A DNA stretch of 55,206 nucleotides from Chlamydiota bacterium (GTDB lineage Bacteria; Chlamydiota; Chlamydiia; Chlamydiales; JAAKFR01). The stretch covers positions 1-55,206 of the forward strand of contig JABDCM010000004.1 in NCBI GenBank assembly GCA_013288105.1. The letters run 5' to 3'. The stretch's first letter is position 1, and each line of letters opens with the position of its first letter. Below, one piece after another: positions 371-55,206 of the stretch. Position numbers and translations under genes: made by a program. The notes under the pieces are model-generated. The model did not search any database. It was not told the DNA's origin and was given only the letters and a program-made list of their open reading frames with translations.

Positions 371-1084
371 ATGAAAAAGTGGTGGATACTTTTACTGATA
401 TGCTTCTCCTTAAACGGTCAAGAAGAAGAAGCGCAACCCAAAGCTCAACTCAGAGATCATTCTGTAGTCCTGATTCATGGATTCGTCTCTTCTGCTCAGA
501 GTATGATGCCGATTAGAAAAGCGTTAACATGCTTAGGATTTGAACAATATGTATGGGAATATCCGAGTCGTGATCAGACGATTCAAGAGCACGCCTGCAA
601 TCTCATTCCTATGCTTCAATATGTGGCCTCTTGTAAGCCTGGTGTCCCCATTAACTTTGTGACTCACTCTGTAGGCGCTCTTGTTTTACGGTGCGCTCTA
701 AATCTTTCTGGATGCCCTGTGGAGGCAAAAGAGGGGCGTATTGTACTGATTGCTCCTCCTAATCAGGGATCGAGTTTAGGACATAGATTCCGGAATTTTT
801 ATCCTGCATATCTCGTGATGGGGGACAAATCAGGAGCTCAGCTTTTAAATTTTGAGGCGCGAGATGTTGCCTGTTTGGGGAATTTTCCTGACAAAGCACA
901 ACTACTTGTTATTGCAGGATACAGAGGAAACACCCTCTTTTGCGCACCTAATGATGGCTGGATTACTGTGGAGGAGACTGCTTTGAATACCCCTTACCAA
1001 TTCCTCTCCTTTCCAGTCTCTCATGGAAGGCTCTTATCGACAGCTGCTGTCTTTTGTGCTATACGCGATTTTTTTCTTAGATAA
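371..1084 (+). CDS. Secreted alpha/beta hydrolase (lipase/esterase)
   Basis: Signal peptide; VVLIHG oxyanion motif, THSVG nucleophile elbow, APPNQGS, NDG and SH triad motifs. Confidence 0.85.
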   Translation: MKKWWILLLICFSLNGQEEEAQPKAQLRDHSVVLIHGFVSSAQSMMPIRKALTCLGFEQYVWEYPSRDQTIQEHACNLIPMLQYVASCKPGVPINFVTHSVGALVLRCALNLSGCPVEAKEGRIVLIAPPNQGSSLGHRFRNFYPAYLVMGDKSGAQLLNFEARDVACLGNFPDKAQLLVIAGYRGNTLFCAPNDGWITVEETALNTPYQFLSFPVSHGRLLSTAAVFCAIRDFFLR

Positions 1085-1100
1085 CCCAAAACTCAGGTTA
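1082..1100. repeat. Collapsed remnant of palindromic element family A
   Basis: TAACCCAAAACTCAGGTTA matches the family A terminus and begins at the stop codon of 371..1084. Confidence 0.7.
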
Positions 1101-2310: not shown

Positions 2311-3370
2311 ATAGACGAGTAAAATTCTCCTCAGAGTGAAATGCAGCATAAGCACTCTGCATTTTCCGCAATTTTTCATACACTATAGGCAACTGAATCA
2401 AAGCAAAGAGATGAGAAAAAAATTGGGGATCCTCCCAATCCACAATCAGCTCCTGAAGATGAAATTTCTCTAACTCATCAGCAAGCCATCCCCCCTTCAC
2501 TAAGGGGATCTTTCCCGCCATAATCGTCTCAACAAAAATACCAGAGGTACGCCATTTATATTGGTGCGGATCATAAGGAAGAAGGACGATATCACTTTTC
2601 TTAAGAAGCTCAAAATAGAATTCCTTAGATAAAACAGATTGACGAAAAGAGAGTTTGATTCCATTTCTAATCGGAAAAAGGGGGGTTTCTTCTGAAAGAT
2701 TAAGCGTAATATGTTCTGATCGATCATCTTGGATTTGTAATAACTGAGAAATTTCTCTCATCCCCTTTTCTTCTCGCGGAGAGCCTGGCCAGATACAGAT
2801 CAGCTCTTTTTTCATTCTGAGATCCTGTATAGGATAAAAAAACGTATGAGGAATCGGCAGTAGATGAGGTCTTCTCTTTAAAAGTCCCTCGTAATAAGGG
2901 AGTAGTTTTTCACTATCTGTCAAGGGAACCAGATGAGCGCCAAATTTCCATCTCAACAATCTTGTGAAAAAACGAAAAACTCCTGCATCTTTCTTATTTC
3001 TCAATGAGGGGTCATCTCGATATACAATCCAGAGATAATCCTCTTTTTTCCCATGAAGAAGAGCAGCTAATGCAAAAGCTCTAAACTCTCTTCTTCCAAA
3101 AGATTCAAAAAAAAAGATCCTTTTCCCCCCCTTTTTATCCAGAAATAACCGCTTACAATCACTCTGGAAGAGCTTTTTGTATTGATTGGAATAGGGATGA
3201 AACCAGCGAACCCATTGATCAGGCAGAGAGGCTAAAGAAGAGGCGAGAGGTGCATAAACAAAAACCTCTTTCGCGAGATTCTGAGCCGCTTTTTGCACAA
3301 CCAGATGGTAATGAAAGGTGTGACCCCCCTCATCAAGAGCACGTTGCGCAATTGAATAAAAACTTGTCAT
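2294..3370 (-). CDS. Putative GT-B glycosyltransferase
   Basis: GSPREEKG and SDIVLLPY...TSGIFVE...GKIP motifs. Confidence 0.7.
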   Translation of the reverse strand: MTSFYSIAQRALDEGGHTFHYHLVVQKAAQNLAKEVFVYAPLASSLASLPDQWVRWFHPYSNQYKKLFQSDCKRLFLDKKGGKRIFFFESFGRREFRAFALAALLHGKKEDYLWIVYRDDPSLRNKKDAGVFRFFTRLLRWKFGAHLVPLTDSEKLLPYYEGLLKRRPHLLPIPHTFFYPIQDLRMKKELICIWPGSPREEKGMREISQLLQIQDDRSEHITLNLSEETPLFPIRNGIKLSFRQSVLSKEFYFELLKKSDIVLLPYDPHQYKWRTSGIFVETIMAGKIPLVKGGWLADELEKFHLQELIVDWEDPQFFSHLFALIQLPIVYEKLRKMQSAYAAFHSEENFTRLFTQLS

Positions 3371-3438
3371 AAACCTTGCCCCTATTTTGCAAAAAGTCTA
3401 AATTTATACGCTTCAAAAAGAAAGATAATTGTTTTTTC

Positions 3439-4596
3439 ATGAACCAAATAGTCGATATTATCATCATAGGAGGGGGAGCCGCTGGTATCTTCGCTGCCAT
3501 TCAGGCTAAAATCGCACACCCCTCTTTAAAAGTCATTGTTCTGGAAAAAACAGCTGTTGTACTCTCAAAAGTAAGAGTGTCAGGAGGAGGGCGTTGTAAC
3601 GTGACTCACGCCTGTTTCGACCCTCCTATCCTTGTGCAAAATTATCCCAGAGGACACAAAGAGCTTCTCGCCCCTTTTTACTCTTTTCAGCCCCAAGACA
3701 CGATAGATTGGTTTGAATCCAAGGGAGTACAACTAAAAATCGAGCCAGATGGACGGGTCTTTCCTATTTCAAACTCCTCAGAAACAATCATTTCATGCCT
3801 TCTTACTGAGGCTGCTAACCTCGGAGTTGAGATACGATTAAGGCAAAAAATAGAAGATATCCTCTATGCAAGGGAGCAGTTTGAAATCCTGCTCGAGGGC
3901 CATTCTCTCATCGCTCCGCGCCTTCTTCTGGCTACAGGAAGCAGCAAGGAGGGGTATAGGTGGGCAGAAAGGCTAGGACACACGATTCAGCCCCCTGTCC
4001 CCTCTCTTTTTACCTTTAATGTCCCCTCCTCCCCTTTACGTGAGCTCAGCGGCATTGTCATCAACCCGGTTGAGGTTAAGCTCGCTGGCACTCACTTTAC
4101 GCAACAGGGGCCCCTCCTTATCACCCATTTTGGCTTTAGTGGACCTGCTATCCTAAAACTCTCTGCCTGGGGAGCACGTCACCTATACCATAAGAACTAT
4201 CAGACAGAAATCACCATTAACTGGCTCCCCTCCCTCTCTCAAAAAGAGCTCCTTAATACCCTCCTCTCCTCCCCATTAAACCCCTTTTCCCTACCTAAAA
4301 ATTTTTGGAAACTCATGATAGCTGGACTAAGCAGAAATAGTAAAAAAAATTTGAATTTGCTCTCAGAAAGATTGCATGCTGACCGGTATCTCATTCAGGG
4401 AAAAACAACTCATAAGGAGGAATTTGTCACCTGTGGAGGAATTTCTTTACAAGAGATCAATTTTAAGACGATGCAGAGTAAATGCTGTCCGGGGCTCTAT
4501 TTTGCGGGGGAGATTTTGGATATAGACGGGATAACCGGGGGTTTTAATTTTCAGAATTGTTGGACAAATGGGTCTATTTTTGCCAAAAATTTATAA
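3439..4596 (+). CDS. HI0933/YhiN (BaiN-like) flavoprotein
   Basis: IIGGGAAG, SGGGRCNVT, THFGFSGP, VTCGGI and GEILDIDGITGGFNFQ motifs; ATG at 3439 preferred to the upstream TTG. Confidence 0.92.
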   Translation: MNQIVDIIIIGGGAAGIFAAIQAKIAHPSLKVIVLEKTAVVLSKVRVSGGGRCNVTHACFDPPILVQNYPRGHKELLAPFYSFQPQDTIDWFESKGVQLKIEPDGRVFPISNSSETIISCLLTEAANLGVEIRLRQKIEDILYAREQFEILLEGHSLIAPRLLLATGSSKEGYRWAERLGHTIQPPVPSLFTFNVPSSPLRELSGIVINPVEVKLAGTHFTQQGPLLITHFGFSGPAILKLSAWGARHLYHKNYQTEITINWLPSLSQKELLNTLLSSPLNPFSLPKNFWKLMIAGLSRNSKKNLNLLSERLHADRYLIQGKTTHKEEFVTCGGISLQEINFKTMQSKCCPGLYFAGEILDIDGITGGFNFQNCWTNGSIFAKNL

Positions 4597-10598: not shown

Positions 10599-11438
10599 AT
10601 GCTTCCTCATCAAGAAAATCGTATCACCATTGACGGCATCGAAATTGCTCTCACCTCTCCCGATCTTTTTCCCTTTCATTGGGTAGGTCAAAGAGATGTT
10701 CTCGACCAACTCTTAGCTTGTTGGCTAGTGATCCACCCTGGGGATATTCCCTTAAATCCCCGCCTTGTCGGAAGACCAGGAGTTGGAAAGACGACTCTCG
10801 CCTATGCTGCTGCTAAAAAATTGGAAAAACAGGTCTATATTTTCCAATGCACCATGGATACGCGTCCAGAGGATCTTCTCATTACACCCGTTATCAATGA
10901 TAAAGGGGGCATTCGCTATGTGGCCTCCCCACTCGTTGCAGCTATGATTCAGGGGGGTGTCTGTATTCTTGATGAGGGAAATCGGATGAGTGAGAAATCC
11001 TGGGCCTCTCTCGCCCCCCTCTTAGATGCGCGTCGCTATATAGAATCTATTGTCACCGGATTAAAAATCTATGCACATGAGGATTTTCGTATCTGCGTTA
11101 CCATGAATGAGGATGCCTCTACTTTTGAGGTCCCTGAATATATTCACAGCCGTCTTCAGCCTCAAATTTATCTTGATTTTCCCGAAGCAGATGAGGAAAA
11201 GCGCATTTTGAAAGAAAATCTTCCTTTCGTAGAGGAGCAGATTCTTGATTATGTAGTAGCCTTTCTTCAAAAAGCCCATTTTCATCAAGAAAATTATTCT
11301 GTCCGTGATGGAATCAATATTGCTCGCTATGCCGCAAAACGGATGCATGCTCTTCCCGAAAAAGTCAATCGAGAGGCCATCATGCGTCAAGCCATCTTAA
11401 TGGTTCTAGGACAAGAGGCAACCATCCACTACTCATAA
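10599..11438 (+). CDS. MoxR-family AAA+ ATPase
   Basis: Walker A GRPGVGKT, Walker B CILDEGNR, sensor region TMN...SRLQP. Confidence 0.9.
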   Translation: MLPHQENRITIDGIEIALTSPDLFPFHWVGQRDVLDQLLACWLVIHPGDIPLNPRLVGRPGVGKTTLAYAAAKKLEKQVYIFQCTMDTRPEDLLITPVINDKGGIRYVASPLVAAMIQGGVCILDEGNRMSEKSWASLAPLLDARRYIESIVTGLKIYAHEDFRICVTMNEDASTFEVPEYIHSRLQPQIYLDFPEADEEKRILKENLPFVEEQILDYVVAFLQKAHFHQENYSVRDGINIARYAAKRMHALPEKVNREAIMRQAILMVLGQEATIHYS

Positions 11439-11439
11439 A

Positions 11440-13302
11440 ATGCATCCATTTCATCTTCGTAAAGGCAATGTGATTGCCCTCCCCACCCTCCATTATACCA
11501 TGGAGTGTGCCATGCATGTAAAAAAGGCCTTTGATTATTTTCAACCCGATTGCATCGCAGTGGAACTCTCCGAGGACTTAAATGACTCTTTTCTCCATGC
11601 TGCAAGCCGTCTTCCAGATATCACCCTCATCAAAACCTCCTCTCTCTACTATCTAGCGGAACCTTGTGATGCTTCATTCGAAGCTCTTCGCTTAGCTCTT
11701 GAGTCTGGTCTGCCCTCTTATTGCATTGATCTACATGTAGACAATTATCCTTTATTTAATGAGGCTCTTCCCGATCCCTACGCTATTTCCATTCTCGGTC
11801 TTGAAAAATATTACACAGCATACATCCAGTCTCAACCAGTCAAACACCCCTTAGATAGATCCAGAGAACTGCATATGGCGCGCCGTTTGAAAGAGCTCTC
11901 CTGTCTATATGAAAGGGTCTTATTTATAGCAGGATTTCATCATAGCGAGGCTGTTTTAGCCGCCTTAGATCAGAACTCTTTTCCCCTCGACGAAGTAAAT
12001 GGCCAAAGGCCCTTTACGAGTCAGAAAATCCCAAGAGATGCAAGTAAACTTCCTGAATTTGAGAAAGAAAAACCCAAAACTCAGGTTACTATTGCTACTT
12101 TAACGGAAGATTCTTGTCGAAAGGTGATGGCTGAATATGGATGGATCAGTCAAGCCTATGAAGAATGGAGAGGCTCTTCTGACATTGAGCTCGATAGACA
12201 ACAACTTATTCTCTCTCTCTATAAAAAAAGCAGTGATAACTACACAAAGAACACAGGAAACCCTTTTTTAGGATATCACTTAAGAAATACGATGAAATTT
12301 GCTCGCAACTACTCGCTCCAACAAAACCGCCTGCTTCCAGGGCTTTTTGAGCTCTTGAGCTGTGCCAAGGGATGCGTTGATCATAACTACGCCTATGAGG
12401 TGTGGGAACTTGCCACCTCTTATCCTTTTCGAAAAAATATCGACAATTTACAAGAGCTCGATCTTTCTGTGGAAGATATTTGGGGCCATTCTAAACCCAT
12501 TTACTTTCACCTAAAACAGAGACAAACTAAAGGGCTCCATTTTCAACGACGTCAAAAAGATAGAGGAGGGAAAAAGCCTTTTTCTCCCCCCTCACCCTTT
12601 TTTCTCTGCTCCTATCCCCCTGAAGATCTTCAAGTAGAAAATTTTGGAGATTTTTTAAAGAAAAAAGGGACTAGGCTTCTATCTGAGGAGCAGGCCCATT
12701 CCATCCCCTTTTCAACCAGCCTAGAAGAGGGATTAGATGTGAAAGAGACAGTCCGACATTGGCATGAGAAAAAGCTCTATGTTAGAAAAAGAGAAAAACC
12801 TCCTCAAGCTGCAAGCTCTGTTGTGATCATCTTTGATGAGGACAGCCCTGAAGAAAAAGATCTTTATAATGAAAAATTTCCCTGGAAAACGAGCTGGCAA
12901 GGAGAACACAGTCAAGAATCTGATATGGCCTTTTATGCCACCTCTCTTCAACAGAATATTATAGGGCCCGGTATCAGCCGCTGTGAATATGGTGGTTTTA
13001 TGCTTACCTCCCCTCCTCGGCGCCTTCAAGATGTCTGGACAGATCCAGACTATGAAAGATGCAAAAATAAGGGGGAGGTCCTCCTGCGAGCCGCTATTGA
13101 TTATGCTTTAAAACCCCTGATTATCTTAGTCGCAAAAAAACCCCCTACCAGCAAAATCAGAGGAATAGCTCAAAGATATGGAAAAAAAATTGTCTATTTG
13201 CCTTTGGGTAGCCTTTCCCCTATCATGCTTAATAAAATCCGCTCTTTCCATGCCCTAGATGGACATGACAAGAGAGAAATAGCTGGTGATTACATTTTTT
13301 AA
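11440..13302 (+). CDS. Conserved MoxR-partner protein with TraB/DUF5682-like N-terminus; contains an in-frame repeat insertion
   Basis: Starts 1 nt after the MoxR stop; IAVEL, RELHMARRL, FIAGFHH, CSYPPED, GLDVKETVRHW and GEHSQESDMAFYAT motifs. Confidence 0.75.
   Translation: MHPFHLRKGNVIALPTLHYTMECAMHVKKAFDYFQPDCIAVELSEDLNDSFLHAASRLPDITLIKTSSLYYLAEPCDASFEALRLALESGLPSYCIDLHVDNYPLFNEALPDPYAISILGLEKYYTAYIQSQPVKHPLDRSRELHMARRLKELSCLYERVLFIAGFHHSEAVLAALDQNSFPLDEVNGQRPFTSQKIPRDASKLPEFEKEKPKTQVTIATLTEDSCRKVMAEYGWISQAYEEWRGSSDIELDRQQLILSLYKKSSDNYTKNTGNPFLGYHLRNTMKFARNYSLQQNRLLPGLFELLSCAKGCVDHNYAYEVWELATSYPFRKNIDNLQELDLSVEDIWGHSKPIYFHLKQRQTKGLHFQRRQKDRGGKKPFSPPSPFFLCSYPPEDLQVENFGDFLKKKGTRLLSEEQAHSIPFSTSLEEGLDVKETVRHWHEKKLYVRKREKPPQAASSVVIIFDEDSPEEKDLYNEKFPWKTSWQGEHSQESDMAFYATSLQQNIIGPGISRCEYGGFMLTSPPRRLQDVWTDPDYERCKNKGEVLLRAAIDYALKPLIILVAKKPPTSKIRGIAQRYGKKIVYLPLGSLSPIMLNKIRSFHALDGHDKREIAGDYIF
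11989..12088 (+). repeat. Family A palindromic element arm inserted in frame in a CDS
   Basis: 11998..12088 matches intergenic 22513..22603 at 84/91 nt; encodes DEVNGQRPFTSQKIPRDASKLPEFEKEKPKTQV. Confidence 0.9.
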
Positions 13303-20776: not shown

Positions 20777-21934
20777 TTAATCCGTAATTGCATGTTTATG
20801 GGCTTGAGGCCAGTCTGGAAAGACAAAGCGCCCCTCTTTTGAAATGATCTGTCCATCGACTGAAAGAGTGCCCCCCTCTCTTAAATCACAAATCATATCC
20901 CAATGAAGTGCAGATTTATTCTCATTGCCTGTCTCAGGATACCCCATCCCCAGAGCCGCGTGAAAGGTTCCCCCTATTTTTTCGTCAAAGAGAATATTCT
21001 TAGTAAATGTTTTAATTTTATAATTAGTGCCTATTGCAATCTCACCCAGCCGACTTGCCCCCTCATCTTGAGCAATCATTGCTCTCAAGAAAGCCTCATT
21101 CTTACTCGCTCTAGCCTCGACAACCCTCCCTTTTTCAAAAGTGAGCTTAACCCCCTCGACAACTGTCTGGTTCCAGATTGCAGGATAGGTATAATGTACA
21201 ATCCCATTGACCCCCCCATCCGATGCCTTTAATTGAGGACCTGTAAAAATCTCCCCATCAGGAAAGTTTCTTTTCCCACAAGAATTGATCCAACGCATCC
21301 CCTCTATATTAACTCGGAGATCTGTCCCCTCTTTTGTTTTGAAGTGAAGCTCCTTTTTTCCCTTCATATAGTCGATCATGCGCATCTGTTTGACTTGCTG
21401 CTCTTTCAAATGTAAAATAGGATCCTCTTCATTGAGATGGCCTGCTTGAAAAACAAAATCCTCATACTCTTTTATCCCCATATCCCCCTCTTGAGCCCCT
21501 GCCGGCGTAGGACAGAGAGTCACGACCCACTCCATTTCACCTGCTGCTGATCGAGTTAATACTTTGGAGAGGATGGGGCCATTAGCTTTACTTAAAAGGG
21601 CAACTTTTTGCGAATCTGCATGCGATAATCCCCGCGTATTGGTAGGCGCAATGACACGAATTCTCTTATTACATTCGGAGACCTCATGAAGAGCTAACGG
21701 ACAGGTACGTTCTAACTGTTTTTGGTTAGCATATTTAAAAAATATCTCATCCCATCCCGCGGGAACGATGGATATTTTTACAAAAGCACCTGCTCGAATC
21801 AGATGTTCATAAAGGGCCTCCAGTAGAGGCATCCCAGCGATTTCTCCTGAAAGCAGAACAAAATCTCCTGCTTTAACTTCTAGAGAGTAATGAACCAAAA
21901 CGGAAGCCATCTTATCTAGGCGAATATCTCTCAT
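20777..21934 (-). CDS. M29 family aminopeptidase (AmpS/PepS-like)
   Basis: NFPDGEIFT, LGEIAIG, ILFDEKIGGTFHAALG and SALHWDMI motifs. Confidence 0.93.
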   Translation of the reverse strand: MRDIRLDKMASVLVHYSLEVKAGDFVLLSGEIAGMPLLEALYEHLIRAGAFVKISIVPAGWDEIFFKYANQKQLERTCPLALHEVSECNKRIRVIAPTNTRGLSHADSQKVALLSKANGPILSKVLTRSAAGEMEWVVTLCPTPAGAQEGDMGIKEYEDFVFQAGHLNEEDPILHLKEQQVKQMRMIDYMKGKKELHFKTKEGTDLRVNIEGMRWINSCGKRNFPDGEIFTGPQLKASDGGVNGIVHYTYPAIWNQTVVEGVKLTFEKGRVVEARASKNEAFLRAMIAQDEGASRLGEIAIGTNYKIKTFTKNILFDEKIGGTFHAALGMGYPETGNENKSALHWDMICDLREGGTLSVDGQIISKEGRFVFPDWPQAHKHAITD

Positions 21935-21956
21935 ATAAACCTACATCTATGCAAAT

Positions 21957-22010
21957 TTCGTCCCCGTGCCTGTGCCTGAATTTGAGGAAGACAACCCAAA
22001 ACTCAGGTTA
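21957..22010. repeat. Short family A element (21975..22010) preceded by a CCCGTG-type repeat fragment
   Basis: CCTGAATTTGAGGAAGACAACCCAAAACTCAGGTTA; the upstream TTCGTCCCCGTGCCTGTGCC resembles the element at 44248..44356. Confidence 0.8.
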
Positions 22011-22064
22011 TATCTAGCGAAAATCTAGTTGAAATGGTACATTTGGGGAAAGAGGTATTATTAT

Positions 22065-22274
22065 ATGCAAGAGCCGCGTGAGATCAATTGGATCATTACC
22101 CTGTTGATGTCAATTTTTTTTGGATCCTTAGGAGTGGATCGCTTTATGATGGGACATATAGGTCTTGGAATTCTTAAGCTGATCACTTTGGGTGGATTTG
22201 GAATCTGGTGGATCGTCGATGTGATTCTGATTGCTTCACAATACCCTTTTTGCAATATTCGTTGGAAAATTTAA
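22065..22274 (+). CDS. TM2 domain membrane protein
   Basis: GSLGVDRFMMGHIGLGILKLITLGGFGIWWIVD signature. Confidence 0.9.
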   Translation: MQEPREINWIITLLMSIFFGSLGVDRFMMGHIGLGILKLITLGGFGIWWIVDVILIASQYPFCNIRWKI

Positions 22275-22603
22275 TAACCTGAGTTTTGGGTTGTCTTCCT
22301 CGAAGGCAGAGAAGTTTACAACGCAGATCTTGGGATTTTCTGACGAAGTTATACCCCACCCGGCGGATAAAGTCCTATTTGATGACGCCAAAGCCCCGGG
22401 GTTGAACGATTGCAAGTCGGACAATATTAAAAATATTGCTCGACTTGCAATCGTTCAACCGCGGGAGCTTTCGCTGTCATCAAATAGGACTTTATCCGCC
22501 GGGTGGGGTATAAATGGCCAACGGCCCTTTACGAGTCGGAAAAGCACAAGAGATGCACGTAAACTTCCTGAATTTGAGGGAGAAAAACCCAAAACTCAGG
22601 TTA
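22275..22603. mobile_element. Full-length family A palindromic MITE-like element (~166 bp) carrying a nested element
   Basis: Terminal inverted repeats TAACCTGAGTTTTGGGTT / AACCCAAAACTCAGGTTA; imperfect complementarity extends about 70 bp; no transposase. Confidence 0.85.
22350..22512. mobile_element. Family B 163-bp palindromic MITE nested in family A
   Basis: Perfect 37-bp TIR TATACCCCACCCGGCGGATAAAGTCCTATTTGATGAC and inner perfect 20-bp IR GGTTGAACGATTGCAAGTCG; absent from the copy at 11989. Confidence 0.9.
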
Positions 22604-22668
22604 ATATCCATGTTCTTAAGCTGAATGAAAATGAAAAATTTGAACGCAAAACAATAAAGGAGATACAT

Positions 22669-23040
22669 ATGACAAAAACAGGAGCAGCAACGACAGGAAC
22701 AACAGCAGCAGACGGTGCACCTCCCCCCCCCCTTTCAGAGCGACCAGATCGCGAAGGCGAGATCCAGAGCAGAAAAGCTCAAGAAATGCCAAAAGAAGGC
22801 TTTTTCAAAAGAAATCTCCCCTGGATTGCAACAGCTCTTGTCGTGATAGGACTCATCGCTACCGGCGTCGGCTTTCTGATGCTTTTTCGAATAAGCGTCA
22901 TGCAACAGTTTACAAACCCCTTGATTCCTCAAATCGGGTTCTTTATGGTCTTAGGGGGCGGCTCTCTTGCGCTCGTCGTCTTTTTCACGACGCTCGCGCA
23001 TCTCATTTCAAATAGAAGACCTGTTGAGCAGCTCGCATAA
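22669..23040 (+). CDS. Putative Inc protein (one bilobed hydrophobic domain)
   Basis: AAGGAG RBS before the ATG at 22669; T/A/P-rich N-terminus; two closely spaced hydrophobic helices. Confidence 0.7.
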   Translation: MTKTGAATTGTTAADGAPPPPLSERPDREGEIQSRKAQEMPKEGFFKRNLPWIATALVVIGLIATGVGFLMLFRISVMQQFTNPLIPQIGFFMVLGGGSLALVVFFTTLAHLISNRRPVEQLA

Positions 23041-41698: not shown

Positions 41699-44152
41699 AT
41701 GTCTGAATTAGATCTCTTTAAAGAAAAAATTCTCCAAGGAGATGCCACCTCTCTTCAAACTCAAATCATCGATCATATCCATTTTACTCTTGGAAAAGAT
41801 CGTTATACAGCCACTAAAAGAGATCTTTTTTTTGCGGTTGCCTATACGATTCGCGATCATCTTGTAGATGGATGGATCAAGACCCAACAGCAATATTATG
41901 AAAAAGATGTGAAACGGGTCTACTATCTTTCCATGGAGTTTCTCATGGGACGCACTCTTCAAAATAGTTTAGTCAATTTAAATCTTTGGGAAAATTGTAA
42001 AAAAGCTGTCCGTGATCTGGGGTATGATATCGATTTTTTAGTAGAGATTGAGGCAGATGCGGGATTAGGAAATGGGGGGTTGGGAAGGCTTGCTGCCTGC
42101 TTTTTAGATTCGATGGCTACGTTGGGAATTCCAGGTTATGGCTATGGCATTCGGTATGATTATGGGATCTTTACACAGAAAATTATCCATGGAAACCAGT
42201 TTGAAACTCCAGATAACTGGCTTCGCTATGGCAACCCCTGGGAAATCTGTCGTGCAGAATATCTCTATCCTGTTCAATTTTATGGACGGGTAGTTAAATA
42301 TACCGATTCTTCCGGAAAGCTGCGTTGTGAGTGGGTGGATACACAAGAGGTCATGGCTATGGCCTATGATAATCCTATTCCCGGTTACAACAATAATACT
42401 GTCAATACGCTTCGACTCTGGCAAGCGCGCTCACCTAGAGGCTTTGATTTAAGCTATTTTAATCATGGTGACTATATCCGAGCGGTTGAGGAGGTCACCC
42501 TAAAAGAAAATATCTCGAAGATTCTTTATCCAAATGATAATGTTTTCGAGGGTAAAGAATTGAGATTGAAGCAGGAATACTTTCTAGTCTCTGCGACTAT
42601 TCAGGATATCATCCGAAGATACACGAAGGGTCATATTCATCTAGATGCTCTTCCAGATAAGGTTGCGATCCAGTTAAATGATACACATCCTGCCCTTGCG
42701 ATTGCTGAGATGATGCGTCTTCTGATGGATCGAGAGGAGCTCAGTTGGGAAAAGGCGTGGCAGTTAACGCGAGATACCTTCGCCTATACCAACCATACTC
42801 TTCTTCCTGAAGCGCTCGAAAGATGGTCGGTCCCTCTCCTTGAGAATCTACTGCCTCGCCATCTAGAAATCATCTATGAGATTAATGCGCGCTGGCTACA
42901 AGAGGTCAATAGACACTATCCTGGGGATTTAGAAAAACAGCGAGCCCTCTCTATTGTTGAGGAGAGTGAGCCCAAAAAAATCAACATGGCCCATTTAGCT
43001 ATTGTAGGCTCGCACAAAGTCAATGGGGTCTCTGCTCTCCATTCAGACCTTTTGAAACAGCACCTCTTTAAACCCTTCTGGGAGATGGAGAATGCAAAAT
43101 TTACAAATAAAACCAATGGAATTACCCCCCGGCGCTGGTTAAAAGTCTGTAACCCACCTCTTGCACGTTTAATTACAGATAAATTGACCGATAAATGGGC
43201 AACAGATCTCTATGATCTCAAACGACTCAACTCTTATGCAGATGATGCCAGTTTTCGCCAAGAGTGGGACCTCATTAAGAGGGAGAATAAGGTCCATCTG
43301 GCCAAAATCATTTTCTCTGAACATGAGATCTCTGTAGATCCTGACTCCCTATTTGATTGCCATGTTAAACGCATTCATGAATATAAACGACAACTGCTCA
43401 ATATCATGCGCGTTATTCACACCTATTTTCAAATCAAAGATAACCCGAATAAAGAATGGATTCCCCGCACGGTAATTTTTAGTGGAAAAGCGGCTCCGGG
43501 TTATTTTATAGCAAAAAAAATCATTAAATTAATTACCTCAGTTGCCAATGTTATTAACCATGATGCTCTGGTTTCTCAGTATTTAAAGATCGTGTTTTTA
43601 GAAAACTATCGAGTCTCTTTAGCGGAGCGCATTATTCCAGCGGCAGATCTTTCGGAACAAATTTCTACAGCTGGTACGGAGGCATCTGGTACAGGCAATA
43701 TGAAATTTACTTTAAATGGAGCTTTGACGATTGGAACTTTAGATGGGGCTAATATTGAAATATTGGAAGAGGTGGGAGCGGACAATATTTTTATTTTCGG
43801 TTTAAAGATTGAAGAGGTGGAAAAGCTGAGGAAGGAGGGGTACCAGCCCTGGGATTATTATTCAAAAGATCCTGCTTTGAAAAGGGTTGTAGATGCGATT
43901 CGAGATGGACTTTTTAGTGCAGGCGATCATGATTTATTTAAGCCGATTGTGTCGAGTTTATTGGAGTGGGGGGATCACTATCTTCTCTTTGCAGACTTTC
44001 ACTCTTATGTAAATAGTCAAGAGCAGGTGAGTGCACTTTATAAAAACCGGGAAACATGGATTCGAAAATCGATTTATAATGTGGCCTCTGTGGGTAAGTT
44101 TTCCAGTGACCGCACCATTCAAGAGTATGCGAAAGAGATCTGGCGATTATAA
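41699..44152 (+). CDS. glgP: Glycogen phosphorylase
   Basis: [24 protein letters not shown] and [13 protein letters not shown] site. Confidence 0.98.
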
Positions 44153-44405
44153 CTTGAGTTTTGGGTTTTTCTCCCTTAAACTCAGGAAGTTTGCTTGCAT
44201 CTCTTGTGCTTTTCCGATTAGTAACTATTCAGGCTATCTTTCACAAGAATCGGGCACGGTAACGTTCACGAAAGAAGGCCCTTGAATCATTTTTTTAAAA
44301 ACCAGCTTAGATGTTCTCTTTCGTGAACGTTACCGCTCCCGTTACCGTGCCCGATTTTCTTCTAATAAACTGAATTTGAGGGAGAAAAACACAAAACTCA
44401 GGTTA
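44150..44405. mobile_element. Composite of palindromic elements filling the glgP / Inc-like intergenic space
   Basis: Family A arm 44150..~44220, GTAACTATTCAG end 44221..44232, family D palindrome 44248..44356, short family A ~44366..44405; both outer TAA/TTA ends are the stop codons of the flanking genes. Confidence 0.85.
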
Positions 44406-45338
44406 ATATATTGGGAAGTTCCATAGAGCGCAAGCGATACCACAGCAGTTGCGATTGTCACCCAATTGGTTGAAGAAGACATCGAGGCCATCGGGGGCAA
44501 AGTCCCCAACAACGACAGGATATTTCCCCTCTATTATTTCCCTGCAATGAGTATAAGTCCCCTCTCCATATACTCGTTCTTGAGTAAAGGCAAAGACCAT
44601 CAGATTAAGCACGACAGCATCCAGCATACTCGGGATAGAACAACCTTTGTCTTGTACCCTCTTGTTCTGGACTTCATAAGCTTGTCCCTGGCTATCAGGA
44701 AGTACCTTTCTATCAATAAGAACCCATCCTCCTGGAGCGATGTTATCGCCTAATTTTCTTTCAACGTATTCATTGAGACGCTTGAATGGACCACCGCTAA
44801 TTTCTTTCAGCACTTTCAGAGTCAAAAGTTGTTCTGTGCCATTAACTCGAATGCTGTTCGGGATATATAGAAGAACCTTATCTCCTTCTTTCAGATCAAT
44901 TTGTGGACGTTGTGAAACAGTATCCAAAACCTCTACATCCCAAATTCTCCATGCTTGCGGTCCATATACCAAGCCACCCTCTGTATCAATGGATCTGATA
45001 ATTTCTGTACGTCTTGCCGAATCCGCATGAGTTGCACCACTACGTTTAGAATCCACCTGTTGCTGACTACTGCTCTGTTGATTGTGCACAATACCCACAA
45101 TGCCCATAATCAATAGAATCGTTCCGCCTCCACCGCCAGCTGCCATCATGATAATTGCATTGACTTGAGCCCTATTGCTAAGCACACCAGCAAGTCCAAC
45201 TGCTCCTACAGCAACTCCACCCATGCCCACAATGATGGCAATAGCGAAAACATACGGTTTCCATTTTAAGAGAGGAGGGGATGTGGGTACATGATGACCG
45301 ATTCCTTCCGGCCCAACTCCAGAAGTTGAACTACCCAT
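44403..45338 (-). CDS. Inc-like protein with C-terminal chlamydial effector-type domain (paralog 1)
   Basis: Gly/Ala-rich bilobed hydrophobic domain; WVLIDRKVLPDS...SMLDAVVLNL...YTHC...VVVGDF domain. Confidence 0.7.
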   Translation of the reverse strand: MGSSTSGVGPEGIGHHVPTSPPLLKWKPYVFAIAIIVGMGGVAVGAVGLAGVLSNRAQVNAIIMMAAGGGGGTILLIMGIVGIVHNQQSSSQQQVDSKRSGATHADSARRTEIIRSIDTEGGLVYGPQAWRIWDVEVLDTVSQRPQIDLKEGDKVLLYIPNSIRVNGTEQLLTLKVLKEISGGPFKRLNEYVERKLGDNIAPGGWVLIDRKVLPDSQGQAYEVQNKRVQDKGCSIPSMLDAVVLNLMVFAFTQERVYGEGTYTHCREIIEGKYPVVVGDFAPDGLDVFFNQLGDNRNCCGIACALWNFPIY

Positions 45339-45380
45339 GATAAATGCCTATGTTTATAAAAACTATCTTAACCAAGATAG

Positions 45381-45413
45381 ATGATACAGGAATAAGATTA
45401 AATTTTTATTAAG
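45381..45413 (-). promoter_or_regulatory. Direct-repeat box plus -10 element
   Basis: cTTAAT-AAAAAT-TTAAT-N10-TATCAT. Confidence 0.5.
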
Positions 45414-45490
45414 GCTGAGATATTAAAATTATCTTTTGATAAAAAATTGAAGAAATTGCTTTTTTAATGCAAATACCAAGTAATCTAGCA

Positions 45491-46426
45491 CTAATAGAAC
45501 CGCCGCCGGACACGAGCGACGCCACAGGATCTTTTGTCACGGGCGTTGTCTAAGAAAGAGAGGCCTTTCTGGCCAAAGCCCCCAACCATGACAGGATATT
45601 GATCACGCGTTTTTTCAATACAATGAGTGTAAGTCAAAGGCTTTTGTCCATACAATCGTTCTTCAGTGCGGGCAAAGACCATCAGGTTAAGCACGACAGC
45701 CTCCAGTACAGTCGGCATGCTGCAATCTTGTTCCTCTACCATTATTTGCTGGAGAGCATAACTTTTTCCCATGCTATCAGGAAGCACCATTCTATCAATA
45801 AGAACCCATCCTCCTGGAGCAGGTTTATTGCCGAATACTTCTGTAACGGATTGACTGGGATACTCGAATGGACCCTTACTAATTTCTTTCAGAACGTTCA
45901 AAGTAAGCTCTGTTTCTCGTCCATCAACCAGAATCCTTGCGGGGATATATAGAAGAATCTGATCTCCTTTGCTCAGGTCAACTTGTGGACGTTTTGGAAC
46001 AATATCCAAAACCTTTACCTTCCAAAGAGTTTCCCATTCTTCAGGTCTATATACCGAGTCGTTTTGCGCATCGATGGCTCTAGTAGTTCCTGTAGATTCT
46101 GTTGAATCCGATTCATGAGTCGCACTGCTACGTTTAGGATCCACCCGTTGATGACTGCCGCTCTGTTGATTTTTCACAATACCCACAATGCCGATAATCA
46201 ATAGAATTATTCCGCTTCCACCGCCAGCTGCCATCATGATAATTGCACCGACTTGAGCCCTATTGCTAAGCGCACCAGCAAGTCCAACTGCTCCTACAGC
46301 AAGTCCACCTATGCCCACAATTATGGCAATAGCGAAACCCCATGGTTTCCCTTTTGAGGGGGAAGGGGATGTGGGTACATGATGACCGATTCCTCCCAAC
46401 TTAACTTTAGCAGCTGAACTACCCAT
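45491..46426 (-). CDS. Inc-like protein (paralog 2, tandem duplicate)
   Basis: 311 aa like paralog 1; near-identical hydrophobic domain and 5' UTR. Confidence 0.7.
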   Translation of the reverse strand: MGSSAAKVKLGGIGHHVPTSPSPSKGKPWGFAIAIIVGIGGLAVGAVGLAGALSNRAQVGAIIMMAAGGGSGIILLIIGIVGIVKNQQSGSHQRVDPKRSSATHESDSTESTGTTRAIDAQNDSVYRPEEWETLWKVKVLDIVPKRPQVDLSKGDQILLYIPARILVDGRETELTLNVLKEISKGPFEYPSQSVTEVFGNKPAPGGWVLIDRMVLPDSMGKSYALQQIMVEEQDCSMPTVLEAVVLNLMVFARTEERLYGQKPLTYTHCIEKTRDQYPVMVGGFGQKGLSFLDNARDKRSCGVARVRRRFY

Positions 46427-52693: not shown

Positions 52694-55206
52694 ATGGCAA
52701 CAAGAGGAATAGGGCCAGGACAGGAGGGGGGTCAACCACCTCCTCAGCAAGAGCCAGAAGGTGTCTTAGGTCGGATATTTGCTGCTGTAAGCGCTCCTTT
52801 TCGAGCACTCTCTCTCTATTTAAAAAAGAGGGAGGCTCTTCATCGCTTGGCTGACTTAACAGATACGGATTATGGTGCAGTCGAGAGAGGACATGGTCGA
52901 TTACCGCTTGCAAAGATTCAAGAAATGATATTGGGCCCTGCAGTTAAAGAGAGGGCGATTCAGAAAATTCTCGGTATGACGTATGCATCTGAAGCTAAAG
53001 AAGCGGAATTAAGAGAGGCACTAGAAGAAGCCTCTTCAGCACAGGTCCTAGAAATCCTCTCTCTCTGCAAAAATTCAATGTTTGCAGATTTCTTATCACG
53101 CATGGAAGCAGATCAATATGCAGAGGTGATACCCGATTTTAAAAGAGCCTTTTTAAAAGAACAGGACATTATAGATATTTCTAGCGCTGTAGAGCAAGCA
53201 TACTATGCACCCTTTCTTCTGGCCACTACCACTATCCCTTCTGAAAGAGATAATATAGCTAAAGATCTAAGGAAATTACGCCAAGAGCTTCAAGAGCTTG
53301 ATGCGGATACTGTGCGAGAAATTCACCAGATTTGCCAACATAATCCCTATGCACCAAAGTACTTAGCAGAAATAATAGATGTGCGTCAATATGCAGCTGT
53401 TTTACAAAACTTTGGGGAGAATGTTGAAAAAGGTGAATATAGCTCAAAGATTACTGCCCTTCTTCCCACCTTATCTGCCGAAAAAAAAGGGGCTTTAAAA
53501 GAGGTTCTTCAAAAAGCTTCTCCTGAACAGATCCGGGTTATCCACTCTTCTTGCCAAAACCACCCCCTAGCTCGAGAATATTTAACAAACATGCGCTCCT
53601 CTGACTATCTCAGAATACTCACTAGTCCATATCTTAACTTTACAGAGCTAAGAGGTGAGCAGAAGGTAGAACAAAAGCGGTTAACAGAAAGTATTTTACA
53701 ATTCCTACCAGATGAACAAGCAAAGAAGAGCTTCGGTGATCTGCTCCTCTCTTATCCTCTAGATGCACTTGATACGCTTCTAGAAAAAATAGACCACGAG
53801 GAGGTACGCATCTATTTCTCCCTGCTGCCTCCTTCGCAATACAAAACTGGAATGGATACTATCTTAGACCCCTCAACACCCCTTAATGCGGAGCTCTACC
53901 TCTCACGTCTATTAGAACCCTTTAAAACCTTAGAGCCAGAGAATTTTGAGGCATTAAAAAAAGCGCTCTCAGAAGCTACTCTTCCACAGCTGCAAAACTT
54001 CCAAAAAGATACCTATAGACAGGCTTATCTTTTTCTCGCACCTGTAACAGAATATAATGAGATTATATATAGCACTTCTGAAGAATACAGAAGTTGTAAA
54101 GCTAAGATCCATGACATTCTCCAATACATTTTTAAACCCCATACTCTAAAAAATCTTCCCCATTCAGCTTTTATCCATTTATGCTCCGCTCTTCATGGAT
54201 TTGACATAAATGATCGCAAATTCCTCAAAGAGACCTTCGGGAAATTGATCGATCCTCTTGTAGCAAGCAGTCTGTCTCCTCAACAGCTCAACCAGTTTCT
54301 CATCCGTTTAGCAGAAATGCCCTTGGAAAAAAGAGAGGAAATCGCTGAAAGAGAAGATCTTTTGGATGCTCTTAAGGCGTTAGTAAAAACAAAATCGATT
54401 GAAACCTTTTTTTCAGACTCTACAAAAGAGCAGGCTATTGCAAAAATTATTGCCCTCCTTCCCTCCTTATCCGGTGAAAAAAAAAGGGCATTAGAAGCAG
54501 CTCTTGGATTAGCTACCTTGAAGAATGTTCAGTTAATTTATGCTCTTTGCAAACACGAGCCTTATGCACGACAGTACTTAGCAGAAGTGGAAATAATGCA
54601 ATATTTAGCAGTTCTGCCAAAGTTTGAGGAGAATGTTACAAAAAGTAAGCGTATTTTAGAAATTACTACTTTTCTTCCCACTCTATCTGCTGACAAAAAA
54701 GAGGCTTTAAAAGAGGTTCTTCAAAAAGCTTCTCCTGAACAGATCCGGGTTATCCACTCTTCTTGCCAAAACCACCCCCTAGCTCGAGAATATTTAACAA
54801 ACATGCGCTCCTCTGACTATCTCAGAATACTCACTAGTCCATATCTTAACTTTACAGAGCTAAGAGGTGAGCAGAAGGTAGAACAAAAGCGGTTAACAGA
54901 AAGTATTTTACAATTCCTACCAGATGAACAAGCAAAGAAGAGCTTCGGTGATCTGCTCCTCTCTTATCCTCTAGATGCACTTGATACGCTTCTAGAAAAA
55001 ATAGACCACGAGGAGGTACGCATCTATTTCTCCCTGCTGCCTCCTTCGCAATACAAAACTGGAATGGATACTATCTTAGACCCCTCAACACCCCTTAATG
55101 CGGAGCTCTACCTCTCACGTCTATTAGAACCCTTTAAAACCTTAGAGCCAGAGAATTTTGAGGCATTAAAAAAAGCGCTCTCAGAAGCTACTCTTCCACA
55201 GCTGCA
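52694..55206 (+). CDS. Large helical-repeat protein, 3'-truncated by window edge (not in ORF track)
   Basis: Manual translation MATRGIGPGQEGGQPPPQQEPEG... shows no stop for 837 codons up to the window end. Confidence 0.85.
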   Translation, partial: MATRGIGPGQEGGQPPPQQEPEGVLGRIFAAVSAPFRALSLYLKKREALHRLADLTDTDYGAVERGHGRLPLAKIQEMILGPAVKERAIQKILGMTYASEAKEAELREALEEASSAQVLEILSLCKNSMFADFLSRMEADQYAEVIPDFKRAFLKEQDIIDISSAVEQAYYAPFLLATTTIPSERDNIAKDLRKLRQELQELDADTVREIHQICQHNPYAPKYLAEIIDVRQYAAVLQNFGENVEKGEYSSKITALLPTLSAEKKGALKEVLQKASPEQIRVIHSSCQNHPLAREYLTNMRSSDYLRILTSPYLNFTELRGEQKVEQKRLTESILQFLPDEQAKKSFGDLLLSYPLDALDTLLEKIDHEEVRIYFSLLPPSQYKTGMDTILDPSTPLNAELYLSRLLEPFKTLEPENFEALKKALSEATLPQLQNFQKDTYRQAYLFLAPVTEYNEIIYSTSEEYRSCKAKIHDILQYIFKPHTLKNLPHSAFIHLCSALHGFDINDRKFLKETFGKLIDPLVASSLSPQQLNQFLIRLAEMPLEKREEIAEREDLLDALKALVKTKSIETFFSDSTKEQAIAKIIALLPSLSGEKKRALEAALGLATLKNVQLIYALCKHEPYARQYLAEVEIMQYLAVLPKFEENVTKSKRILEITTFLPTLSADKKEALKEVLQKASPEQIRVIHSSCQNHPLAREYLTNMRSSDYLRILTSPYLNFTELRGEQKVEQKRLTESILQFLPDEQAKKSFGDLLLSYPLDALDTLLEKIDHEEVRIYFSLLPPSQYKTGMDTILDPSTPLNAELYLSRLLEPFKTLEPENFEALKKALSEATLPQL
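53491..55206 (+). repeat. Intragenic direct repeat with period 1212 bp (404 aa)
   Basis: 53491..53994 reads identical to 54703..55206 (504 bp, cut by the window end). Confidence 0.92.

Follow-up and report, generated by a model that had tools for sequence, protein, structure and literature searches.

Palindromes of about 150 nt that lie in frame in unrelated housekeeping genes, at sites which the protein fold can accommodate, are known from Rickettsia as Rickettsia palindromic elements (RPEs; Ogata et al. 2000, summarised in section 4.2 of PMC10969869 and in PMC3733652), and in R. conorii nearly half of 44 RPE insertions are intragenic, as cited in PMC10969869. [quoted passage not shown] The REP and REPIN sequences, which are mobilised by RAYT, are described as 20-40 bp repeats that bear GTAG or CGTC tags and lack a 5-bp target site duplication (TSD; PMC3733652). 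That other prokaryotes may show in-frame palindromic elements is only a speculation in section 4.2 of the 2024 review (PMC10969869). The present analysis concerns a 55,206-nt stretch of DNA (the window; positions 1 to 55,206 of contig JABDCM010000004.1, assembly GCA_013288105.1) from a member of the Chlamydiota, in which the gene for a conserved 620-aa protein carries, in frame, part of a 163-nt palindromic element. No chlamydial description of such an element was found in the open-access literature searched, supplements excluded (including PMC9723776 and PMC2878342), which agrees with the first-pass annotation of the window, whose author knew of no described example in this phylum.

Element-derived codons in a conserved chlamydial gene

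Codons 184-216 of the host gene read DEVNGQRPFTSQKIPRDASKLPEFEKEKPKTQV, and the 620-codon frame is fully open across them. Positions 11998-12088 are identical to positions 22513-22603 at 84 of 91 sites and both stretches end in CTCAGGTTA; these observations, the codon range and the intact frame had all been reported in the first-pass annotation and were all confirmed. A direct-repeat search of the window recovered the same pair as 97 nt at 92%, and a BLAST search with 11989-12095 against the whole genome (968,882 bases on 45 contigs, 61% complete) returned 62 matches, the best non-self match being at 97% with an E value of 1e-42. The repeat is far beyond chance. A profile built from 11 full copies of the element (nhmmer) placed its positions 66-166 at 11987-12087 (E 1.4e-29). 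The element DNA in the gene extends from D184 through the first two bases of V216, with native reading restarting at T217 (ACT); the left arm is missing upstream of 11989 and the host gene holds half an element. The initially proposed extent of 11989-12088 was correct in recognizing a repeat arm and slightly too long, as the element DNA comprises 98 nt (11989-12086) and base 12087 starts the pentanucleotide TACTA. This pentanucleotide would represent one copy of the TSD, an assignment based on its flanking position and its fit to the target consensus, since the left copy is missing. Of the stem formed by a full copy, only the central mini-hairpin is still able to pair in the gene copy, and the hairpin as a whole has been lost (fold z -1.6 versus -11.6 in a full copy). 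Coordinates are collected in Table 1.

The 620-aa protein has 1763 homologs at E<=1e-3, the top non-self match showing 61% identity, and its named homologs are Chlamydiales. It has no match among Pfam families (PF18934 is present in some of its homologs), and when its model was compared with the PDB by Foldseek nothing passed E<=0.001, the top hit being at E 0.14. The insert is absent from all 29 database homologs aligned (58-64% identity; 24 alignment columns missing) and from all 12 orthologs of the same family, the gene being present in 12 of 28 other family genomes. More specifically, 9 of these 12 family orthologs match as two separate segments, interrupted around query residues 182-190 and 203-216, and where an ortholog reads FPE-LEHAKRADVR-LATLTED the window protein reads FPL-(33 residues)-TIATLTED. 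None of the 41 orthologs carries the 33 residues. An alignment gap of about 30 residues had been anticipated, and a gap is indeed present in 41 of 41; its size is 24 residues, as the 33 element-coded residues stand in place of about nine native ones. The window protein retains all of the invariant columns of a 30-sequence alignment (A1), and its flanks show approximately 60% identity.

An AlphaFold2 model built from this alignment has block means of 80-97 over most of residues 1-180, and is good only there and in parts of 217-270. It shows residues 176-216 as coil lying between a helix (166-175) and a strand (217-221), with pLDDT values below 50 for residues 188-211, and is consistent with the loop that the first-pass annotation had proposed to look for. 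In one ortholog (P0029) this loop is also interrupted, by 39 residues of unrelated sequence (alignment columns about 249-287), which suggests that the site is a generally permissive loop, perhaps hit in P0029 by a different repeat.

The gene copy is identical to ten full copies at 82-95 of 98 nt, and the full copies are identical to one another at 82-97 of 98 nt (median 92). Because its similarity to the full copies equals theirs to one another, the gene copy is placed, on sequence similarity, within the same recent burst.

One public DNA run (X1) contains 97% of the sampled words of the stretch. Among the Logan contigs of this run, one lies over 11500-12018 and another over 12034-12600, each with 0 differences, and both junctions of the insert are covered; in these contigs the misassembled junction that the first-pass annotation had named as grounds for withdrawing its claim was not encountered. 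A chimeric join is very unlikely, because the flanks together make up a single conserved gene whose halves follow each other in the expected order and reading frame.

Anatomy of the element

Full copies of the element are 163 nt in length and form an almost perfect palindrome, with the terminal inverted repeat (TIR) ACCTGAGTTTTGGG at one end and its complement CCCAAAACTCAGGT at the other. The genome contains 28 paired elements with conserved termini; 11 measure 163 nt, one 164 nt, five 325 nt and three 95 nt, several others are shorter or of odd size, and the mini forms span 36-95 nt. The nhmmer profile gave 86 matches, which correspond to 51 loci on 27 of the 45 contigs. The computed fold of a full copy is one hairpin (-81.8 kcal/mol, z -11.6), which 0 of 200 shuffled sequences equalled.

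The two 5-bp flanks of an element agree perfectly for 12 of 27 elements here and for 75 of 118 from other genomes (87 of 145 in total); the next-outer 5 bp, used as a control, never do so (0 of 27 and 0 of 118). Other duplication lengths fail (2 of 145 for 3 bp and 0 of 145 for 4 bp). The 87 perfect duplications have the consensus T-A-N-T-A, with T in 82, A in 64, any base, T in 75 and A in 84. The sole open frame of the element codes for 55 residues, and no transposase gene is present. Four of five features of MITEs were found, these being small size, TIRs, a fixed-length TSD and dispersed copies; the fifth, a parent insertion sequence (IS), was not. On the basis of its small size, TIRs, fixed-length TSD, many copies and internally deleted or nested derivatives, the element is classified from its sequence characters as a non-autonomous MITE.

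A pair of termini enclosing 1975 nt was considered as an IS and rejected, as it encloses a 593-aa TPR-like open reading frame (ORF) between two mini copies. These two copies (contig C5:46852-48826) share an adjoining 30-nt flank and may reflect a local duplication of the bracketed ORF. Membership of a known RNA family was likewise rejected, a search of Rfam at E<=1 with positions 21900-22700 having returned miRNA-like hairpins at 24-28 bits against gathering thresholds of 53-70.

Other in-frame copies in the genome

Of the six frames of a canonical copy one is open, and it is so in 9 of 10 such copies. Five genes, accounting for 5 of the 51 loci, carry element codons, and all five read the element in this same open frame. 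The first-pass annotation had stated that the repeat is found elsewhere only between genes; within the window this is true of the remaining copies, and it fails for the genome, in which four genes besides the host gene carry element codons. Its proposal that this lineage has its own peptide-donating palindromic element is supported, having come through those of its own proposed checks that were run: orthologs are without the segment, the element is a genome-wide repeat with 51 loci, in-frame copies exist both here and in relatives, and the insert is modelled as an unstructured loop.

One of these is a GDH-like gene (glutamate dehydrogenase-like; 1062-codon open frame; Pfam ELFV_dehydrog and Bac_GDH_CD), in which a precise 168-nt insertion follows ...ILFT with TACAG duplicated. 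This insertion is absent from 11 aligned orthologs, and matches in 23 family genomes are split around the site. A UDPGP-family gene (UDP-sugar pyrophosphorylase-like) has a 151-nt copy, or 156 nt with its duplication, between an N-terminal segment and the catalytic core, and in 27 of 28 family genomes the ortholog alignments start just past the element. In a conserved hypothetical gene (267 aa from the first ATG), which carries a full copy in frame, a C-terminal motif common to two aligned orthologs lies in frame past the element. The fifth gene encodes a histidine kinase (PAS-HisKA-HATPase), and a 31-nt terminal fragment there makes a PAS-domain loop 6-9 residues longer than in nine orthologs. 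The conserved hypothetical gene also has an in-frame 36-nt mini copy near its N-terminus (C5:2105-2140, locus L065; ...NLIEKEKPKPQVK...), a region in which two orthologs are shorter.

When each of the 51 loci was checked for long open stretches to its left and right, no clear case of an out-of-frame gene disruption emerged. A possible frameshifting mini copy of 36 nt was observed at contig C2:22705-22740. Many copies situated just upstream of gene starts, for example those of the transaldolase and HAD hydrolase genes, merely lengthen the open frame.

Distribution among chlamydiae and in protein libraries

Among 401 genomes of the phylum scanned, 52 have matches to the element (this genome counted). 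The element occurs in 12 of 23 genomes of the same family and in 0 of 30 in a family of small 1.0-1.2-Mb genomes, and full-length matches of 68-89% identity are found in several families of the phylum. Terminus counts in five relatives were 165, 100, 35, 19 and 8, versus 0-2 for a reversed-pattern control. The exact two-terminus pattern is present in at least 115 stretches of public genomes. The 80 stretches listed all derive from metagenome-assembled genomes (MAGs), most of them labelled Chlamydiae, Chlamydiales or Chlamydiia, and the labels among these stretches include Rhabdochlamydia, Rhabdochlamydiaceae, Parachlamydiaceae and Protochlamydia. A few records with non-chlamydial or otherwise odd labels (L089, L096, L099, L102, L111, L128, L130, L133, L138, L146 and L159; Verrucomicrobiae or Verrucomicrobia, Bacteroidetes, Methanosarcinaceae and a 'Chlamydia trachomatis' MAG) have exact termini at the canonical spacing, and may be mis-binned or mislabelled chlamydial contigs.

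In-frame copies in relatives are found in an 894-aa SBP_bac_5 protein, a 622-aa ORF, a 288-aa ORF and a RecD-like helicase, and one relative has a copy in the central part of an MFS-type transporter, read in another frame of a diverged subfamily. In a GDH ortholog of another genus (L070, G376:C144:1-2815) a related element has inserted independently and in frame, approximately 14 residues downstream of the site occupied in the present genome. A profile made from eight element peptides (alignment A2, 18 invariant columns) and searched against 1.84 billion cluster representatives matched 62 proteins at E<=1e-3, of which 44 also pass E<=1e-10. These matches are predicted ORFs, and the figure of 62 is a floor, as a protein whose cluster representative is without the insert, such as the 620-aa protein, cannot appear. 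In 21 of the 62, the protein is at least 200 aa in length and the peptide lies at least 30 residues from either end, and Pfam domains are present in 4 of 10 matches scanned (SBP_bac_5, PP2C, AAA_30/UvrD_C_2 and Pkinase). In one of the matches, a 477-aa protein kinase homolog (P0136), the Pkinase match breaks off at residue 283, which corresponds to position 166 of the 263 in the profile, and residues 319-373 are the element peptide; the insert may lie within the kinase domain. In two relatives (G002 and G376), element termini lie some 20-130 nt from many contig ends.

Origin and fate of the insert

The segment in the host gene is very probably the remnant of a MITE that landed in a variable loop, was kept in frame and is translated as a harmless disordered loop. 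According to this proposal, a 163-nt, TANTA-duplicating MITE would have multiplied to some 50 loci here and reached many other genomes of environmental chlamydiae. A single copy may then have entered the DNA for the variable loop between helix 166-175 and strand 217-221, landing in the sole orientation and frame, of six, that lacks a stop codon in this subfamily. Element and duplication together would have added 168 nt, or 56 codons, such that the downstream frame was kept. A later in-frame deletion of 96 nt could have taken the first 65 positions of the element together with 4 nt of the left duplication and 27 nt of native sequence, and would also have removed the long hairpin from the mRNA. 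The protein would consequently be made with a hydrophilic, probably disordered loop of 33 element-coded residues, and the insertion would persist because it is harmless, the peptide itself doing nothing. Insertions in other frames or in structured parts of proteins would have been purged by selection; such a filter, which passes an open frame in a permissive loop, would explain why all five genes read the element in the same frame. The two-step course is suggested as the most economical reading.

Several considerations weigh against this account. A one-step insertion of an already truncated copy would look alike. No close relative is available for dating, either in a search of 5.8 billion proteins (best 61%) or among 28 family genomes (best 61-68%); the insertion is thus undatable, and the ancestral nine-residue loop is assumed from more distant orthologs. 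The element is not consistently frame-neutral, as its length plus 5 bp is a multiple of three in 46 of 125 exact-terminus elements (163, 166, 151, 154, 325 or 130 nt), or about one third. The structural model is poor overall (mean pLDDT 57.5). No autonomous partner was found, in that no pair of termini 0.7-3 kb apart encloses a transposase in this genome or in five relatives, one of them complete, the remaining genomes being incomplete and the scan having covered no transposase Pfam families; the partner may be unassembled or lost. With regard to the assembly, no single Logan contig crosses the whole 98 nt, the left contig reaches just 30 nt into the element, and the DNA run may be the genome's own source sample and so not independent. 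No RNA run contains the stretch, and a gene inactivated recently by so young a copy would still look intact.

The last of these points leads to the strongest rival, by which the insertion recently killed the gene and the frame is open just from youth and frame-neutral luck. The gene copy is as young as the others, no RNA run contains the stretch, and a gene with so patchy a presence in the family may be dispensable. Against this, all invariant residues of the 30-sequence alignment are kept and the flanks are about 60% conserved over 620 codons; both of the proposed events are multiples of three, all five genes use the open frame, and the loop tolerates the independent 39-residue insert in P0029. 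Recent gene death is accordingly regarded as unlikely, and a tolerated, translated loop as the better account of the host gene.

The first-pass annotation had described the element as recruited, or exapted. In a true exaptation the element loop would have gained a function, for example as a partner-binding or regulatory linker, and would be kept by positive or purifying selection. Such an interpretation draws on the conservation of the peptide across genera in the in-frame copies (18 invariant columns in eight sequences), on the same GDH-like linker having been hit independently in two genera and on the 21 of 62 matching clusters of at least 200 aa in which the peptide is internal. However, nucleotide diversity among 83 full copies is flat over codon positions 1, 2 and 3 (0.306, 0.298 and 0.317), the open frame is interrupted by a stop in the pan-family consensus, and intergenic copies code for the same peptide; the hairpin and the youth of the copies account for the conservation, and the loop is modelled as disordered. 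Because no codon-position bias is seen across copies, a tolerated insertion fits better than exaptation, and the claim of recruitment was not upheld, there being no sign of peptide function; true exaptation in the host gene is regarded as decidedly improbable. The 55-residue peptide is hydrophilic (8 S, 6 K and 6 E). The notion of an element built for coding was also rejected, on the flat diversity over codon positions, the consensus stop and the one-third share of frame-neutral lengths. Element lengths in the family range over 161-173 nt, 164 nt being the commonest, and the frame-neutral 168 nt of this genome's subfamily is probably luck.

An assembly artefact, in which two loci were joined via the repeat or a repeat was collapsed into the gene, can draw on the summed depth inside the element (approximately 3300-4400, versus 20-41 in the flanks), on the lack of a spanning contig and on the frequency with which contigs of related MAGs end at element termini, and is nevertheless scarcely credible, given that one flank codes for the N-terminal and the other for the C-terminal part of a single conserved protein, correctly ordered and in the same frame, that unique contigs enter the element from each flank with 0 differences and that without the element the flanks would be short of nine conserved-length loop codons.

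Other copies in the window

The remaining copies of the element in the window are included in Table 1. The 325-nt composite, with which the first-pass annotation had compared the gene copy, contains a second palindrome of 157 nt at 22353-22509, with ends ACCCCACCCGG... and ...CCGGGTGGGGT. This second palindrome is found solely inside the first element, with six full copies and one 32-nt fragment in the genome. The composite has itself spread, and target duplications differ between its copies. At the 252-nt variant, the TANTA target and element ends seem to supply or abut the stop codons of both convergent ORFs. Three pairs of 300-nt direct repeats of 73-91% identity, spaced 1082-1212 nt apart, were also noted at 44550-46413 and 53331-54898; these look like tandem paralogs.

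Table 1. Element-related features and neighbouring genes in the window, with the basis of each assignment.
Feature	Position	Strand	Basis
Host gene, conserved chlamydial protein of 620 aa	11440..13302	+	ORF list
Right-hand 98 nt of the 163-nt palindromic element, a putative MITE (element positions 66-163)	11989..12086	+	nhmmer, ortholog absence
Central mini-hairpin of the element (GTAAA-GGCC...GGCC-TTTAC)	11995..12017	+	Fold of 11960-12120 compared with full-copy fold
TACTA, putative retained right-hand copy of the 5-bp target duplication	12087..12091	+	Flanks, fits TANTA consensus
MoxR-type AAA+ ATPase, 279 aa, directly upstream of the host gene	10599..11438	+	Pfam AAA_5, E 3.7e-19
Composite of 325 nt with both element arms and a nested 157-nt palindrome, TAATA/TAATA flanks; intergenic, upstream of the gene starting at about 22670	22277..22601	+	
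Mini derivative of about 36 nt, terminal sequences only; intergenic	21973..22010	+	
Variant of 252 nt, exactly between the stop codons of convergent ORFs 41699..44152 (+) and 44403..45338 (-)	44152..44403	-	
Lone right-terminus fragment at the 3' end of ORF 371..1084	1081..1098	+	

Implications and comparison with known systems

In-frame palindromic elements have so far been treated as a peculiarity of Rickettsia, and the present case adds a second, unrelated lineage of obligate intracellular bacteria. Gene-dense, reduced genomes can evidently absorb mobile DNA inside genes if frame and site permit, and the insertions serve as natural experiments from which permissive loops of conserved proteins in chlamydiae can be read off. 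There are also practical consequences for genome annotation. The element fragments MAG assemblies of chlamydiae, its termini being places where contigs break off; it also makes predicted ORFs too long by extending them upstream of the true start, and inflates protein families via a shared segment of 55 residues; its termini could in turn be used to flag chlamydial contigs binned under other names. A more ambitious and doubtful proposition is that the element is a phylum-specific counterpart of the RPEs, serving as a recurrent source of disordered loops and linkers of which some became fixed and functionally integrated, in which case two unrelated intracellular lineages would have converged. 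Candidates for such integration include the GDH-like linker hit in two genera, along with the element-derived segments of a protein kinase, of a PP2C phosphatase, of a loop in an MFS transporter and of a 2957-aa protein.

Of the systems described previously, REP and REPIN sequences resemble the chlamydial element in being palindromic, of high copy number and mostly extragenic. The unit described here is however 163 nt long, possesses TIRs and TSDs, and has ends (ACCTGAG...) without GTAG or CGTC tags. The likeness to the in-frame-fusing bacterial MITEs is closer in structure, comprising small size, TIRs, a TSD, the lack of a transposase gene, many copies, deleted or nested derivatives and occasional in-frame fusions. 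In contrast to those MITEs, the element belongs to a new sequence family, and the whole of it forms one long hairpin instead of two short TIRs around an unrelated core. With the RPEs it has in common a short palindrome, an obligate intracellular host, an open frame for a conserved peptide and the occurrence of both intragenic and intergenic copies. The likeness is one of behaviour, and the hosts belong to the Chlamydiota and the Alphaproteobacteria, respectively; nearly all named records that contain the element are MAGs of chlamydiae, not of Rickettsiales. The intragenic share is also lower here, at 5 of 51 loci. Unlike the RPEs, the chlamydial element displays clear TIRs and a 5-bp TANTA duplication, which make a transposition mechanism evident.

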